Shown in pieces: positions 42,984 to 53,715 of a stretch of DNA of 64,000 nucleotides. Position 1 is the stretch's first letter. The number at the start of each line of letters is the position of its first letter. The translations under genes and the position numbers were made by a program. The notes under the pieces were generated by a model. The model worked only from the letters and a program-made list of their open reading frames with translations, was not told the origin of the DNA and searched no databases. The DNA comes from Sulfurospirillum sp. UBA2217 (GTDB lineage Bacteria > Campylobacterota > Campylobacteria > Campylobacterales > Sulfurospirillaceae): NCBI GenBank assembly GCA_002328495.1, contig DCUJ01000009.1, positions 97,180 to 161,179 of the forward strand, in the 5' to 3' direction.

Positions 42984-43792
42984 AATCATTACATGTAAAG
43001 AGGTTGGTATTTTTTTTATTATGGAGTGCAAGCCTTCAAGCAGCTTCCATTACCTTAAGTGGCGTGGTGACATCGGACAATGAAAAGAGCATTGCGAGCC
43101 GTTATATGGGCTATATCAAAGAGGTTTTGGTAGATGAGGGTAGTGTGGTAAAAAAAGGCGATTTGCTTTACACCATAGACTCCAATGAAATCGATACCGC
43201 CAAAGTACAGGTGGAACAAAGCATCGCCCAAGCAGAGCTTAACGTTCAAATGTACGAAAACCAATACGCCAATGCCTTGCTCAATTTAGAGCGCCATCAA
43301 AGGCTTTTGCAACAAGATATGGTGTCAAAATTTGATGTCGAAAATCTTGAACTCTCTTCTAAAAATCTCAAAGCTATGCTAGAGATTGCTAAAAAACAAC
43401 GTCTACAAGCCCATGCAAAACTCAAAGAAGTTCACAATCAATACCACTACCTCGATGTGCGCTCACCAAGTGATGGTGTTGTGATTGCTAAAAAAATCAG
43501 AGCAGGGGAAATGGCATTACCTGGGGTACCTGCATTGGTGTTGGTTGACCTTGCACATGTGAAAATTCTAGCCGAAGTCTCTGAAAATCATCTCTCCTCA
43601 CTTAAACTTGGCGATAAAGTCTCTTTTTCCATTCGTTCTATCTCACACCAAGGGGAAGGAAAGGTTGTGGCGATTGTCCCCAATTCCAATGCACTCTCTC
43701 ATAGTTTTAAAGTAAAAATTGCATTTGATACCACACCGCTCATTTATCCAGGGATGTATGCTGAAGTGGTCTTTGATAGGTTAAATCCATGA
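42980..43792 (+). CDS. RND periplasmic adaptor (membrane fusion protein)
   Basis: IASRYMGYI..V.VDEGS.VKKGDLL lipoyl halves, coiled coil, VRSPSDGVV, IYPGMYAEV. Confidence 0.93.
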   Translation: MKSLHVKRLVFFLLWSASLQAASITLSGVVTSDNEKSIASRYMGYIKEVLVDEGSVVKKGDLLYTIDSNEIDTAKVQVEQSIAQAELNVQMYENQYANALLNLERHQRLLQQDMVSKFDVENLELSSKNLKAMLEIAKKQRLQAHAKLKEVHNQYHYLDVRSPSDGVVIAKKIRAGEMALPGVPALVLVDLAHVKILAEVSENHLSSLKLGDKVSFSIRSISHQGEGKVVAIVPNSNALSHSFKVKIAFDTTPLIYPGMYAEVVFDRLNP

Positions 43793-45378
43793 GTTACCGC
43801 TATAAAGAACGCTACCTTGCTGGCTACCTTGCGCGCCTATTTTTACACAATCCTCTCACCAGTGTGCTAGGGGTTACGCTGATTCTTTTAGGCGTGATTG
43901 CCCTTTGGTTTATGCCCCGTGAGGAAGATCCTCAGATTTCGATTAGTGGGGGAACGGTCATCGTAGGGTTAGCAGGTGCAAGTGCTGAAGAGGTGGAACG
44001 CGTGATTGTGCGCCCTTTAGAGCGACGTATTAAAGAGATTAAGGGGGTTGAACATATCTATGGTGTCGCAAGTGACAATGTGGGTGTGGTCAATGTCATG
44101 TACTACATCGGAGAAAACAGAGAAGCTTCCAATCTCAAACTCTACGATAAAGTGATGCAAAACATGGATCAACTTCCTCAAGGTGCGACAACACCGCTCG
44201 TGCGTCCTTTTGACATTGACATTGATATTCCTATTCTTTCCATTGCATTTTACGCCAAAGAAGGTAGCGTAGTGGAGAGTGTCGAGCTTTATAAGCGCAT
44301 TGAAGAGATACGAAACGCCTTAGGAAATGTCCCCAATGTGGCAAAGACGGAGCTTAAAGGGGAGCTAAAAGAGCAGTTTAATGTTGAAGTTGATTTGGGA
44401 AAACTAGCAGGATACCACCTCTCCTTAGCACATATTCAAACCGCTCTCAAAGCTCTTAGCGTTAGCATGCCCGATATTAAAAATCGCACGGGAGATGGGA
44501 AATTGCTTGTTTTTGGGATCGCCAATGCGATTGAGAGTGTGGAAGATATTCAAAATGTCATCATCGCGCAATACGCAGGCTCGGCTATCTATCTGAAAGA
44601 CGTGGCAACGGTAAGTGCTGGGACTGAGATACAAAATCTTAAACGCGCTCATATCAGTTACACAACAGACAATGGTTTCACCCCTTTGCGTGAGCAAGTA
44701 ACCCTAAGCGTTTCAAAGCTCAAAGGCTCCAACGCCGTGGTGATTGCCGAAGATGTATTGGAGCGTATTGAGAGTTTTAAGGCGTGCTTGGACAGTGTAG
44801 GCATTGGCTACATTATTACTCGAAATTATGGAGAACGTGCCAATGAAGCGGTCAATGAATTGGTTTTTCATTTGCTTATTTCGATTGTAATCATTGCTGT
44901 TTTACTCATTTTTATCTTAGGGTTTAGGGAGGGGATGATTGTCACGCTTACCGTTCCTGCGATTTTAGCGATTACGATTTTTATAGCATACATGAGCGAT
45001 CAAACCATCAACCGCATCACGTTGTTTGCTTTTTTACTCAGCCTTGGACTTTTAGTGGACGATGTGATCGTGGTGATTGAAAATATTCACCGACATTTAC
45101 ACGATAAACTCTCCGCTCAAAAACCTTTTGATGAGATTCTCATTGAAGCAACCGATGAGATAGGCGCACCGACCAATTTAGCCACGATAGCTATTATCCT
45201 CACGATGGTGCCAATGGCGTTTGTGGGGCAGATGATGGGAGAGTTTATGAAACCCATTCCGTTGAATGTGCCTGTTGCGATGTTGGCTTCTTTGCTGATA
45301 GCGTATATTTTTACACCATTTTTAGCGCAACTCTTTTTGAAAAAGAAGCACCATGCAAAAGGAGAGAGCGATGCATAG
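43789..45378 (+). CDS. RND (AcrB/CzcA-like) permease, N-terminal half (TM1-6)
   Basis: MPREEDPQI, GASAEEVE..IVRPLE, IKGVEHI, VPAILA, TINRITLFA, GLLVDDVIVVIENI, VPMAF, AYIFTPFL. 529 aa. Confidence 0.9.
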   Translation: MSYRYKERYLAGYLARLFLHNPLTSVLGVTLILLGVIALWFMPREEDPQISISGGTVIVGLAGASAEEVERVIVRPLERRIKEIKGVEHIYGVASDNVGVVNVMYYIGENREASNLKLYDKVMQNMDQLPQGATTPLVRPFDIDIDIPILSIAFYAKEGSVVESVELYKRIEEIRNALGNVPNVAKTELKGELKEQFNVEVDLGKLAGYHLSLAHIQTALKALSVSMPDIKNRTGDGKLLVFGIANAIESVEDIQNVIIAQYAGSAIYLKDVATVSAGTEIQNLKRAHISYTTDNGFTPLREQVTLSVSKLKGSNAVVIAEDVLERIESFKACLDSVGIGYIITRNYGERANEAVNELVFHLLISIVIIAVLLIFILGFREGMIVTLTVPAILAITIFIAYMSDQTINRITLFAFLLSLGLLVDDVIVVIENIHRHLHDKLSAQKPFDEILIEATDEIGAPTNLATIAIILTMVPMAFVGQMMGEFMKPIPLNVPVAMLASLLIAYIFTPFLAQLFLKKKHHAKGESDA

Positions 45379-47029
45379 ATTGGAGCAGTTTATTTATGGC
45401 ATTTTAACCTCTCCCCAAAAGAAAAAAATGGTACTTTTGCTGACTTTTTTAGCCTTTTTAGGCTCTGTGTTGATGTTCCCGACCAACATTGTTTTAGCCA
45501 AAATGTTACCAGGGAAAAGTACCAATACCTTTTCTATTTATGTGGATTTACCCAATGGAAGCTCATTTGATGAAAACCAAAAAGTTAACCAATGCGTTGT
45601 CTCTTTGTTGCAAAAGGAGAAAGAGGTACGTAACATTGAAGTGTTTAGCGGTATGGGCTCACCCCTTGATTATGCAGGCTTAGTGAAAGGTTCTGGTTTT
45701 AAAATGGGAGAGCACCTCAGTGAAATCGTGGTCAATTTAAGCGATTTGCATGAGAGGGATGAGCGTTCGTATAGCATGGTGCACAGGTTGCGTCCCCTCA
45801 TTCAAAAGGCGTGTGAACCTTTGGTCGAACGCACAAGCATCAAAATGGTAGAACAACCCGCTGGCCCTCCGACACTCTCAGCACTCGTGATTGAATTGTA
45901 TGGAGAAGATGAGCAGAGCTTAAGAGGGCTTTCAAAAGAGCTCAAGTCGATTTTAGAACACACACCTGATTTGGTGGATGTGGATATCTTAAATGACGAC
46001 ATCTACACCAAATACACTTTAATCCTTGATACGCAAAAAGTGATGCACTCTAACGTTGCCATTGATGCTTTGCACTCCCTTTTGTATCTCTCCTTTGAAG
46101 GAGCGGCCGTTGCGCATAAAAACAGTGATATGTCGCCTGCGCAAGTGCCTATATTTGTAGTTTTAAGTGAGGGTTCTAAAAAAATAGCTCAGCTTTCACG
46201 AGAGCATCTTGAAGCCAAATTAGCCTCAGTGATGATACCCAATCACATGGGCACGCTGATACCTCTAAATACCTTGGTTCGCGTTGAGGAGACACAATCC
46301 ACCCCGACCATCATGTCTAAAAATTTGCAAAAAATGGTGACCATCGTGGCAGAAGCCGATTTGGTCTCCCAAGTCTATCCGCTCTTAGATGCACGCAGTG
46401 CTATTAAAGAGAAGCTTAAAGAGCGTTATGAGATTCGAAGTAGTCATCTTTTTGATTTGGAACTTAAAGACAAACGAAGTGGGGAAGTGTTCCAGTTGGT
46501 GTGGGATGGTGAGATGAAAGTCACTATGGATACGTTTCGAGACTTGGGCGGGGCATTTATCGCAGCCTTGGTCTTGATTTTTCTTTTGATGGTGGTTTAT
46601 TATAAAAGTTTTGCAATTTCAGGGGTCATTCTTTTGGGTAGCTTTCTTTCTATCATTGGGGTGATTGTAGGGCATTGGGTGATGGATGTTTTGGTTCAGG
46701 GTACGTTCTTTTTGACCGCAACATCACTCATTGGCTTCATCTCGCTTATGGGGATTAGCTCTCGAAATTCGCTTTTATTGATAGATTTTAGTATGACGTT
46801 GATGCACAAAGGGATGGAGAAAAAACGCTCCATCGCCATCGCTGTTGCCACGCGGGCTAAACCTATTTTTCTAACGGCTTTGGCGATTATTTTAGCCAGT
46901 ACACTTTTGGCGACCGACCCTGTCTTTGGAGGGCTTGGAGTGGCTCTTATCTTTGGAACCATCGCCGCAGTTATCGTCTCATTGATTGTGGTTCCTGTTT
47001 TGATGGATGACACAAAAGCAGTCCATTAA
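45371..47029 (+). CDS. RND permease, C-terminal half (TM7-12)
   Basis: Own GGAG RBS and ATG. LPGKSTNTF, AGPP, LIFLLMVVYY.SF, GFISLMGISSRNSLLLIDF, RAKPIFLTAL, DPVFGGLG. Confidence 0.9.
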   Translation: MHRLEQFIYGILTSPQKKKMVLLLTFLAFLGSVLMFPTNIVLAKMLPGKSTNTFSIYVDLPNGSSFDENQKVNQCVVSLLQKEKEVRNIEVFSGMGSPLDYAGLVKGSGFKMGEHLSEIVVNLSDLHERDERSYSMVHRLRPLIQKACEPLVERTSIKMVEQPAGPPTLSALVIELYGEDEQSLRGLSKELKSILEHTPDLVDVDILNDDIYTKYTLILDTQKVMHSNVAIDALHSLLYLSFEGAAVAHKNSDMSPAQVPIFVVLSEGSKKIAQLSREHLEAKLASVMIPNHMGTLIPLNTLVRVEETQSTPTIMSKNLQKMVTIVAEADLVSQVYPLLDARSAIKEKLKERYEIRSSHLFDLELKDKRSGEVFQLVWDGEMKVTMDTFRDLGGAFIAALVLIFLLMVVYYKSFAISGVILLGSFLSIIGVIVGHWVMDVLVQGTFFLTATSLIGFISLMGISSRNSLLLIDFSMTLMHKGMEKKRSIAIAVATRAKPIFLTALAIILASTLLATDPVFGGLGVALIFGTIAAVIVSLIVVPVLMDDTKAVH

Positions 47030-50655: not shown

Positions 50656-50686
50656 TTACATGTAAAGAGTGATTTTCACTCTTTAC
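50656..50686. terminator. Bidirectional terminator between MCP and mutS-HNH, starting from TTACATGTAA
   Basis: GTAAAGAGTGA-ttt-TCACTCTTTAC, overlapping the mutS stop codon. Confidence 0.8.
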
Positions 50687-53610
50687 TTCTCTTCAAAATG
50701 CAATTTCAATCCATCACTGCTCATCACAAAACCACTAATGGTGATTTTACCCTCATGCACCATTTTATGATGTTTGGAACACAGCGGAATAAGATTGAAA
50801 CGATGATTTTGGTGAAAATGTTCAATTTGACCATGCTCATTGGCACTCTCTTGCGCTTTGATGTGATGCACTTCATCGACGTATTCATCGCACAGAGCGC
50901 ATTTAGAGAGGTAGAGGTTTTTGTTGTATTTACTGCGTTTTTTCTGTTTTAAAAGCTCCACATCACCCAGTTCTCCTGCTAAGTGTCGCCTGATATCATA
51001 CGCCATTTTGATAAACTCTTTATCCATGTGCAAGGACTTCGCAAACTCCAAGCCATAAAGCGAGCTTCCACTGCCAAGCTCTAATTTTCGGTTGTAAAGC
51101 AGTCTATCGTTCTCTTCATCGTAGCTCACACCCAAATGCAAAGGGATGACTTTTGTAAGCTCTTTCATGAGACGTAAGTGTCCTAGTTGGTGCAAATGAG
51201 TCGCAAAAACAAACAAAGAACCCAGCGTGTCCATCTTTTTTATCGCACTGGCGACAATGGCTAAAGCCGATTCTGTCTCCGTTCCATGGCTGATTTCATC
51301 GCCCAAAACCAAAGAATTTGGCGTAGCACGGTTGAAAATATTTTTAAGCTCCAGCATCTCAACGGTGAAGGTTGAAAGACCTTTATAGAGATTGTCATGA
51401 CTCATAATGCGGGTAAAAAGCTTATCAAAGAGGCTAAAGCGCAAACTCGCACACGGAACAAAAAAGCCCGATTGTGCCATGATGACTGCCATACCCAGGC
51501 TTTTCATGAGTGAAGACTTACCGCTAGAGTTGATACCATACAGCAAGATACCTTGTACCTCAGGCGCATCGGTGGCTTCAAGGGTGATGTGATCGTGCGT
51601 GATGCTCTCTTTTCGTGTGCCCAAAAAGAGGTCATTGGGGATATAAATGCCATTTTCTTCACGGGATTCGATGAGCGGATGACGCAGTCCGATAGCTTCC
51701 ACAAAACGCTCCCCCGTAGGGCAAAGTTCAGGGCGGACGTAGTTGAAAAGAGAGGCGCATTTGGCGTTGCTAAGAGCCACATCAAGTGTGCCAACAAACG
51801 CGATGAGGTGCTCTAGGGTGAGGGCATAGTGGGTTTCGATTTTCTCTAGCATCTCATCATAACGCTCTTTGACGAGGGCTATCATCTGCATGTTGCTGAG
51901 GCTGATTTCTTGTGAAATCTCTTCAATCAAGGAAGCGGATATCTTCACACTGTTTTTAAGATGTCTAAAGGTAAAGTCTTTGAAAAAGTAGTGTTTTTCA
52001 CCAATGGTGATAAAGCTTTGCATGAGCTTCTCTTCAATCAACGCAAAACGGTTTTTACTAAGACTGATATAATGCCCCTCGCTCTCCAACCACTCGATGC
52101 TAATCGTTGAGCGATTGTTCTCTTCAAAAAAACTTTCTATGGTTTTAGCAATACGTTCTAATGCGCTAAAACGCTCTTTTTTAGCCTGTTCGATTTTATC
52201 AATCTGTGGATAGACCCCTTTGACAAAAAGGTTTTCGCTGATTTGGTCTTTGCGAAATTTAGCGCAACTGTCTAAGAGAAAGGTATTTTGAAGCATCAAA
52301 AAGAGGGCTTCACTTTCATCAAAGAGCTCTTTGGGTGTGGGGATTTTTTTAAATTGTGCCTCTTTTAAAATGCCCAAGATTGCCTCAAGTGAGGTGCTTA
52401 AATAATCAAGCTCCAAAGGATGCAGTTTTTTCAAAGCAATGCGCCTTAAAATGCGCTCCAAATCGTACACTTGCTTGAGGGCAATTTCAAATTTTTTATA
52501 CTCTTTCATCAGCTGTGTGCTCAAATCAAAACGCTCGTTAAGGGTTTTGATATCGCAGATGGGATTGAGCAAACGCTCTTTTAGCAGACGTTTTCCAATC
52601 GCCGTTGAGGTCTGGTCGATAAGATTTAAGAGCGTCATCTCGTTAGGGTTTCGTGAGATGATATCCAGTTGTTCAAGGGCGTTGTTGCCTAAATAGAGGT
52701 AACGACTGTTGCCCACCAAAATAGGACGGCTCATCTTCTCAATGATGTTCGCATCGTGTTCGATGATAAAATCGCACAAAATCGCCAACGATTCACTCGC
52801 ATAGGGGTAACGTTCAATGTCTAAGTACTCAATGGGAGACAGAAGCGAGCGAATGGCGTAAATACGTGCAAAAAGCTCATTTTGGTAGGTGATTTTGAGG
52901 CGTGTTTTATTGAGGCTGTGCGATACACTTTGGTTGATTTCAAGGTAGTTTTGCACCCACTCTTTATCGATGGATTCGGAGTTAAACGTGAGGACGACTT
53001 CACTGGTTTTATAGGTTTGCAAGAGATTGAATATTTCATCCAGAGCATAGGTTTTATCTTCTCTGGTGCCATGCACTTCGTTGATGATGGTCTTTCCTGT
53101 ACTCACATCAATGGCAGCATACCCCACCGAGTAAATCTGATGGTTACAGTCAATGAGGAGTGAGACAAGGTAGTTTTCACTCGACTCCATCACATAATCA
53201 AAATTGGTTCCAGGGCTGATGATGTTAGCAATGTAGCGTTTGACATGGGGCGGTTCACCCTTTTGGCGCACTAAAACGATGGTGTATTTTTTACTCTGAA
53301 CGAGGCGTGAGAGGTAACGCTCCAAAGAAACAGAAGGAATGCCAGCCAGCAGAGGATTTTGTAAGGAATTTTCGATGATGGATTTGTTTTTACGGGTGAG
53401 TTGGATGTTTAAAAGTTCACTCACCTCTTTGGCTTTACCGATTTGATGGGTTTCGTTATTGACTTCATAGGTTTCAAAAAAAGAGCCAATTTCCATAAAG
53501 ACAATGGTGTTTTTGCCATATTTTTCTTCAAAAAAGAGTTGTAAATCAAAATAGATTTCGCTTAAGAGCTTCTCTTTGGCGTTTAATAATTTGGCTATAT
53601 TTTCGAGCAT
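50683..53610 (-). CDS. MutS-family mismatch-recognition ATPase fused to a C-terminal HNH endonuclease (MutS7 type)
   Basis: Domain [12 protein letters not shown] (Phe-X-Glu), DLERILRR, Walker [43 protein letters not shown] and C-terminal CALC...EVHHI...[14 protein letters not shown]. Confidence 0.93.
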
Positions 53611-53715
53611 TGAAACCTTTACATGTAAAAGAAATAAGCTAAATTATACAGAATGGAAGCATAAAAAAAGGGCTTGTTTGATACAATAAAGAGACTATTT
53701 TTGAAGGATATTTTT

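Follow-up and report, generated by a model that had tools for sequence, protein, structure and literature searches.

The stretch of DNA analysed here, which we call the window, comprises 64,000 nucleotides of contig DCUJ01000009.1 of Sulfurospirillum sp. UBA2217 and carries on its minus strand a gene, here named mutS7, for a MutS protein with a C-terminal HNH nuclease domain. The gene covers positions 50683..53610 as a single unbroken open reading frame (ORF) that starts with ATG, contains 975 codons before its stop codon (50683-50685) and encodes a protein of 975 amino acids (aa). An initial annotation had placed a MutS7-type MutS-HNH fusion in this interval, and the ORF is indeed intact there; the strand, which that annotation did not give, is the minus strand, and the plus-strand reading is riddled with stop codons. 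Database proteins at 97% identity bear the name "DNA mismatch repair protein [Sulfurospirillum sp.]". The MutS7 family (HNH-MutS) was reportedly defined by Ogata et al. in 2011. Bilewitch and Degnan (2011) are likewise among its definers (PMC3166940), and the family is characterised by just this domain architecture and has been described from epsilonproteobacteria, from giant viruses and from octocoral mitochondria (PMC3166940, PMC8438181).

Read from its N-terminus (all gene positions on the minus strand), the protein begins with the mismatch-binding MutS domain I (residues 32-137, 53200..53517; Pfam MutS_I, E 1.2e-10), whose GSFFE motif (53473..53487) presents Phe44 and Glu46 as the equivalents of Phe36 and Glu38 of E. 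coli MutS. The connector, MutS domain II (residues 146-243, 52882..53175), is matched weakly by Pfam MutS_II (E 3.4e-4) and was located also from the alignment of the predicted fold to E. coli MutS, and a highly conserved YQNELF patch (residues 242-247, 52870..52887) lies at about the position of E. coli MutS Gln211/Gln212. MutS domain III, the lever and core (residues 310-616, 51763..52683; Pfam MutS_III, E 1.5e-27), contains a beta-rich, clamp-like insert at residues ~504-558 in the secondary structure of the AlphaFold2 (AF2) model and is followed by the ATPase of MutS domain V (residues 689-877, 50980..51546; Pfam MutS_V, E 3.7e-42), with the Walker A sequence GINSSGKS (residues 692-699, 51514-51537), Walker B residues D771/E772, the catalytic histidine His805 and a conserved signature serine.

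A basic, flexible linker (residues 878-903, 50902..50979) with a conserved S-x-Y-N motif that is common to viral homologues leads from this MutS core to an HNH (beta-beta-alpha-Me) nuclease domain (50686..50901). The latter has a zinc site of the form CxxC...CxxH (C904, C907, C944 and H947), candidate catalytic residues H915, H916, N939, H948 and H952, and a terminal beta-hairpin after them. Every motif that had been quoted at the outset for a MutS with Phe-X-Glu, ATPase and C-terminal HNH is found in the ORF, with GSFFET at residues 42-47, CALC at 904-907, HHI at 915-917, N939 and CSKHHKMVH at 944-952. The proposed profile searches for MutS_I and MutS_III, for MutS_V and for HNH all returned matches as well; HNH_2 is weak on the whole protein (Pfam, E 8e-4) and above its gathering cut-off on the last 91 residues alone (24.7 bits vs 21), and of 38 homologous tails encoded on giant-virus contigs, 30 match the classical HNH family PF01844. 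Pfam finds no Smr domain in the protein, and domain I is present, unlike in MutS2.

The residues on which these assignments rest are well conserved in an alignment of 46 bacterial and giant-virus homologues. G42, F44 and E46 of the mismatch-recognition motif are invariant, as are N694, G697, K698, S746, D771, E772 and H805 of the ATPase and C904, C907, H915, H916, N939, C944 and H948 of the HNH domain; the candidate catalytic positions H915/H916, N939 and H948/H952 are invariant or nearly so, and the HNH tail can be aligned along its length with the viral tails. Beyond the family, F44 and E46 align to F36 and E38 in all seven MutS1 references that we used, and N694, K698, S746, D771, E772 and H805 align with E. 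coli N616, K620, S668, D693, E694 and H728. In comparison with 11 congeners, the ratio of nonsynonymous to synonymous substitution rates (dN/dS) is ~0.03-0.07 for each of the domains, the HNH tail among them, a rough estimate with dS near saturation, and all domains of MutS7 are under purifying selection. Within the YQNELF patch, Q243 and N244 are invariant in Campylobacterota, and Y242 and Q243 are still at least 90% conserved once viral sequences are added. The patch aligns to residues 208-213 of E. coli MutS with a precision of a few residues only, in agreement with the Pfam MutS_II coordinates of both proteins, and Gln211/Gln212 of E. coli MutS are buried in the MutS-MutL interface (PMC4521584).

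The AF2 model built on the 46-sequence alignment has a mean predicted local distance difference test (pLDDT) score of 85.7 and a predicted template-modelling score (pTM) of 0.77, and a disordered stretch at residues 882-888 of the linker (pLDDT <50) joins core and tail. When the model is superposed on E. coli MutS in its mismatch-bound form, ~885 columns align with a template-modelling (TM) score of 0.82-0.87 normalised to the target. MutS7 would accordingly possess both a connector (II) and a clamp (IV) region, even where sequence profiles barely detect or miss them. Published domain tables of MutS7 and mtMutS, based on Pfam and SMART, list domains II and IV as absent (PMC3166940, PMC8438181); judging from the model, this absence probably reflects a limit of detection by sequence profiles. 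A Foldseek search of BFVD returned giant-virus MutS proteins as best matches (E 2.9e-64 to 4.3e-76), among them "MutS subfamily 7 [Tetraselmis virus 1]" with E 2.9e-64 and a TM score of 0.73-0.75 over 1004 columns, and for the "subfamily 8" protein of that virus the search gave only E 1e-13. A sequence search of the PDB found no solved structure of a MutS7 protein, with E. coli MutS as best match (E 1e-47, core only). Modelled alone, the HNH tail folds into strand-strand-helix and terminal hairpin with a pLDDT of 92.6.

Sequence models and phylogeny agree in separating the protein from the better-known MutS families. It scores below the cut-offs of the MutS1 models PRK05399 (389.7 bits, cut-off 480) and TIGR01070 (289.9 bits, cut-off 641.7) and likewise below that of the NCBIfam MutS2 model. 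IMG/VR yielded more than 500 relatives to a profile built from 11 Campylobacterota proteins, and of these we kept 80 loci, mostly on contigs of giant-virus metagenome-assembled genomes (MAGs). These homologues span residues ~20-970 at 29-36% identity with E-values down to 1e-176, and their ORFs of 930-1075 aa have the Phe-X-Glu motif and the tail as in our protein. Beyond the phylum, it is to such MutS-HNH proteins of giant-virus contigs that our protein is most closely related. Nine loci of this set (L047-L055) carry the MutS7 copies closest to the bacterial ones (33-36% identity) and are placed near the bacterial clade in our trees; they lie mostly on contigs of 8-67 kb, with L048 on a contig of 213 kb, and some of the short contigs might be mis-binned bacterial DNA, e.g., of the Candidate Phyla Radiation (CPR), rather than viral.

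We calculated three trees on this small data set, using LG+G4 with and without the HNH columns as well as LG+C20, with seven named MutS1 references (E. coli, Ralstonia, Sinorhizobium, Thermomicrobium, Bacteroides, Bacillus and Fusobacterium), two MutS2 sequences and no octocoral sequences. All three nest the protein inside a Campylobacterota clade with 100% support and give MutS1 and MutS2 as clades, each with 100% support, that exclude it. The clustering with MutS1 or MutS2 that had been named as the outcome speaking against MutS7 identity was therefore seen neither in the trees nor with the NCBIfam cut-offs. Under LG+G4, the MutS-HNH proteins of bacteria and viruses are united in a single clade with a Shimodaira-Hasegawa-like approximate likelihood ratio test (SH-aLRT) support of 99, whether the HNH columns are kept or removed. 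Strict monophyly of MutS7 is less certain in view of the LG+C20 tree, in which the MutS1 stem, with a length of 3.0 changes per site, takes a weakly supported position (43/33) among the viral sequences, and of an approximately unbiased (AU) test that did not reject Campylobacterota and MutS1 being held together (p = 0.144, on the same small data set). The shared, alignable HNH tail provides independent evidence for a common origin of bacterial and viral MutS-HNH proteins. With domains I, III and V followed by a C-terminal HNH, and with homology to giant-virus proteins along the full length including this tail, we are highly confident that the protein belongs to MutS7, and it is an ordinary, vertically inherited member of this published lineage.

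Comparison with individual relatives gives the same picture. Other Campylobacterota MutS7 proteins have an identical architecture of domains I, III and V plus C-terminal HNH, and identity amounts to 76% with the RefSeq "MutS-related protein" of Sulfurospirillum arcachonense and to 60-63% with proteins of Nitrosophilus, Hydrogenimonas, Sulfuricurvum and Sulfurovum; there is no substantive difference, and the gene of the window is simply the orthologue of another species. The MutS7 proteins of Mimiviridae and their relatives, e.g., Tetraselmis virus 1 and Aureococcus anophagefferens virus, share the same invariant residues and are 29-36% identical over the full length including linker and HNH, but contain extra insertions (up to ~1075 aa) and in most copies have Cys as the fourth zinc ligand (CxxCH), where our protein has His (CxxHH). 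Octocoral mtMutS, likened here by its description, has the same domain order and HHNH residues (PMC3166940, PMC8438181) but operates in the mitochondrial genetic system of a eukaryotic host, whereas the protein of the window is bacterial.

The source assembly (2.42 Mb in 13 contigs, 99.4% complete) encodes none of the classical partners of a mismatch-binding MutS that we searched for. No MutL was found by three models, with no match to TIGR00585 and PF01119 and a chance-level one to PF08676 (MutL_C; E 0.26), and searches of the genome likewise found neither MutH nor Dam; MutS1 was not found in the genome either. The neighbours of mutS7 include neither mutL nor mutH, just as the initial annotation had stated. 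Two genes of the genome bear a MutS_V domain, mutS7 itself and a separate gene for a 733-aa MutS2 with Smr domain, and RecJ as well as several UvrD-family helicases are present.

The same pattern extends across the phylum. In an even sample of 401 Campylobacterota genomes, each at least 98% complete and with MutS7-type matches counted from 44% identity upward, MutS7 is present in ~105, mostly as a full-length gene with a few copies split or interrupted. It occurs in nearly all genomes of eight families (f1, f5, f7, f8, f9, f11, f12 and f14) and in 12 of 20 genomes of another (f4). The two largest families (f2 and f3), which judging from their size and small genomes are probably Helicobacteraceae and Campylobacteraceae, contribute 276 genomes, and it was found in none of these; the distribution claimed earlier, with the family in free-living members of the phylum, is borne out by its presence in nearly all smaller families and the lack of matches in these two. 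The MutS1 model exceeds its cut-off in none of the 401 genomes, and the strong matches to it are MutS7 loci only (220-341 bits vs the cut-off of 641.7). MutL exceeds its cut-off in one of the 401, a fragmented genome without MutS1 (G230), where the match is a 365-aa ORF that covers the N-terminal ATPase half of MutL only (L036, G230:C138:72412-76371) and may be an orphan MutL-N homologue or contamination. We rejected this genome as evidence for a canonical system in the phylum because it offers only an N-terminal MutL-like ORF and no MutS1.

A scan of species-representative genomes gave at least 576 MutS7-type loci, with Sulfurospirillum, Sulfurovum, Nitratiruptor, Hydrogenimonas, Sulfuricurvum, Sulfurimonas, Thiovulum, Nitratifractor and Arcobacter among the named holders. 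Full-length homologues were also seen in two genomes of Candidatus Magasanikbacteria (CPR/Patescibacteria; L196 and L209), so that MutS7 reaches beyond the three host groups given in the literature. As a separate observation, one genus (g43 of family f8) has a second MutS7 paralogue of 626-678 aa beside the full-length gene in four genomes (G174, G285, G231 and G364). The one copy that we examined (L044, G174:C29:40500-42900) lacks domain I and the Phe-X-Glu motif and retains the ATPase and QNELF; its HNH looks degenerate, with CxxC present and the catalytic HH strand missing.

At the locus itself, mutS7 is preceded by an AAAGG ribosome-binding site (53616-53620, minus strand) and, ~32 nt upstream of the ATG, by a candidate extended -10 promoter box TGTATAAT (53643..53650, minus strand) that we read from the sequence only. 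A pattern match at 50662..50686 revealed a strong hairpin with an 11-bp stem between mutS7, whose stop codon it overlaps, and the convergent gene of a methyl-accepting chemotaxis protein (MCP), and we regard it as a candidate bidirectional terminator. The 3' end of mutS7 is separated from the next gene by 33 bp, which shows that nothing has been inserted there. Genes for efp, a DJ-1 glyoxalase and the chemoreceptor lie on one flank of mutS7, and on its opposite flank are those for a DUF2721 protein, a CvfB-like protein and a flavoprotein; the order chemoreceptor-mutS7-DUF2721-CvfB is preserved in the congeneric genomes examined, and no conserved neighbouring partner gene was found beyond the genus. 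The gene is the resident single-copy mutS7 of a Sulfurospirillum (Campylobacterota) chromosome. Elsewhere in the window (43789-47029, plus strand), an AcrB-type efflux permease of the resistance-nodulation-division (RND) superfamily is apparently encoded in two pieces, by overlapping ORFs of 529 and 558 aa, and the match of the second ORF is confined to positions 525-1016 of the 1021 in the profile. A frameshift, an error of sequencing or a gene that is truly split may lie behind this.

The family, its architecture, its occurrence in Campylobacterota and the idea of self-contained repair are all already published, and the gene adds nothing new to them. Self-contained repair is a published hypothesis for MutS7 and mtMutS (PMC3166940), and our literature search found neither enzymology nor genetics for any bacterial MutS7, in keeping with the earlier statement that the biochemistry of these proteins is largely uncharacterised. 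The natural point of comparison is canonical MutS1 of E. coli or Thermus, with which the protein shares the fold, the Phe-X-Glu motif and the ATPase residues at an identity of only ~22%. MutS1 has a C-terminal tail for tetramerisation and beta-clamp binding where our protein has the HNH domain, and it acts together with MutL, with or without MutH, whereas the genome of the window lacks MutL. Judging from these sequence features, the most likely function of MutS7 would be a MutL-independent, mismatch-triggered incision of DNA.

We envisage that the C-terminal tail of MutS1 was replaced in MutS7 by the flexible basic linker and the zinc-stabilised HNH nuclease. A putative MutS7 dimer would scan DNA, recognise a mispair through Phe44/Glu46 and enter a clamp state upon ADP-to-ATP exchange in domain V, and the tethered HNH would then incise the DNA near the mismatch in place of MutL recruitment, in what we expect to be a mismatch- and ATP-dependent nuclease reaction. 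A UvrD-type helicase, a RecJ-type exonuclease, polymerase and ligase would subsequently replace the tract; the form of the incision, nick or double cut, and the way, if any, in which the new strand would be chosen are likewise conjectural steps of this scheme. Our observations comprise the set of domains and motifs, their conservation, the lack of the canonical partners and the presence of downstream factors, from which the activities are inferred, and we hold the mechanism as such to be just as easily right as wrong; for family membership and mechanism blended into one judgement, our confidence is somewhat better than even. A more ambitious version would make MutS7 the sole mismatch-repair system of MutL-less, free-living Campylobacterota, with the HNH licensed by the conformational switch that loads MutL and docking at YQNELF once the ATP-bound clamp has formed, i.e., as a built-in MutL endonuclease; we put this forward very tentatively from the position of the conserved patch and think it quite unlikely.

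Several observations weigh against repair by mismatch-triggered incision. A strand-discrimination signal is not evident, with neither Dam nor MutH in the genome, and we saw no conserved beta-clamp-binding motif in the N-terminus or linker of MutS7. QLFF at residues 24-27 was considered as such a motif and rejected, as it is not conserved among orthologues. The isolated HNH model has no significant fold neighbour in the PDB, with the HNH enzyme TagI as best match at E 1.5. Moreover, mutS7 is interrupted by stops in a few genomes (G317:C1:783274-786205, i.e., L019, as well as G363, G397 and G319), and one interrupted copy, that of G317, lies in a complete genome of the same genus as the gene studied here; such copies could be natural mutator lineages or sequencing errors. 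Because it is interrupted in these few genomes and was not found in the two largest families, mutS7 is dispensable in nature. Loss and interruption are common for mismatch-repair genes.

The question of the strand leads directly to the strongest competing explanation, in which MutS7 would break DNA and leave its repair to recombination as proposed for plant MSH1: the HNH domains of both subunits would cut, and the double-strand break would be mended by homologous recombination with the sister copy, so that no strand discrimination would be needed. Plant MSH1 indeed offers an analogous combination of a MutS sensor with a small C-terminal nuclease that is proposed to act independently of MutL, and the parallel between MSH1 and MutS7 has been drawn before (10.1101/2020.02.13.947598); however, MSH1 is an independent fusion from a different MutS lineage with a GIY-YIG rather than an HNH domain, i.e., an analogue and not a nuclease relative. 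A dimer of MutS7 would bear two HNH domains on flexible linkers, the strand signals MutH and Dam are missing as described above, and a 924-aa UvrD-family helicase ORF of the genome is a candidate AddA-like protein. Yet a break for each replication error would be costly for a bacterium with a single chromosome, many HNH enzymes are nickases, and nothing in the data separates a nick from a double cut. We consider repair through breakage possible but unlikely.

Somewhat different in purpose would be a role of MutS7 in the surveillance of recombination, where heteroduplex DNA from transformation or homeologous recombination is recognised and destroyed by the HNH domain, which would restrict how much diverged DNA is taken up. 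Mismatches in heteroduplex DNA would be recognised by the intact domain I as well, and nuclease-fused MutS proteins such as MutS2-Smr are described as acting against recombination. MutS2 likewise combines a MutS ATPase with a C-terminal nuclease domain, but it lacks domain I and carries Smr instead, and the genome already encodes its own, separate MutS2-Smr, whereas MutS7 retains the full MutS1-like mismatch-recognition apparatus that MutS2 lacks. Repair by incision and surveillance of recombination are not exclusive, since MutS1 systems do both; as an explanation of MutS7, we regard surveillance as decidedly improbable.

The YQNELF patch could be read in still another way, as a partner surface kept roughly where MutL is contacted in E. 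coli MutS, with MutS7 serving as a canonical, MutS1-like sensor, with an unrecognised and non-homologous substitute of MutL taking over from it, and with the HNH as an accessory or structural zinc module. This is hard to reconcile with the invariance of the catalytic-type HNH residues from bacteria to giant viruses, with the strong purifying selection on this domain, and with the lack of a conserved neighbouring partner gene beyond the genus, and we deem it very improbable. Finally, defence systems often contain HNH domains and P-loop ATPases, but the notion of MutS7 as a MutS-like ATPase with HNH directed against foreign DNA, or as a selfish, homing-type nuclease, is extremely improbable given its housekeeping neighbours, its stable synteny within the genus and its near-universal, single-copy presence in the families that have it, and we rejected the defence-system reading because the PADLOC match concerns only the P-loop (E 0.003) and is no real one.

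MutS7 is a described candidate for mismatch repair by a single protein. Should it cut DNA at mismatches without a partner, this would explain how fidelity is kept without MutL in free-living Campylobacterota, in some giant viruses and in octocoral mitochondria, and the choice of the strand would become a clear question. The gene of the window is a clean, intact and well-conserved orthologue of a genus that is not pathogenic and would be a reasonable source of protein for the enzymology of this family.

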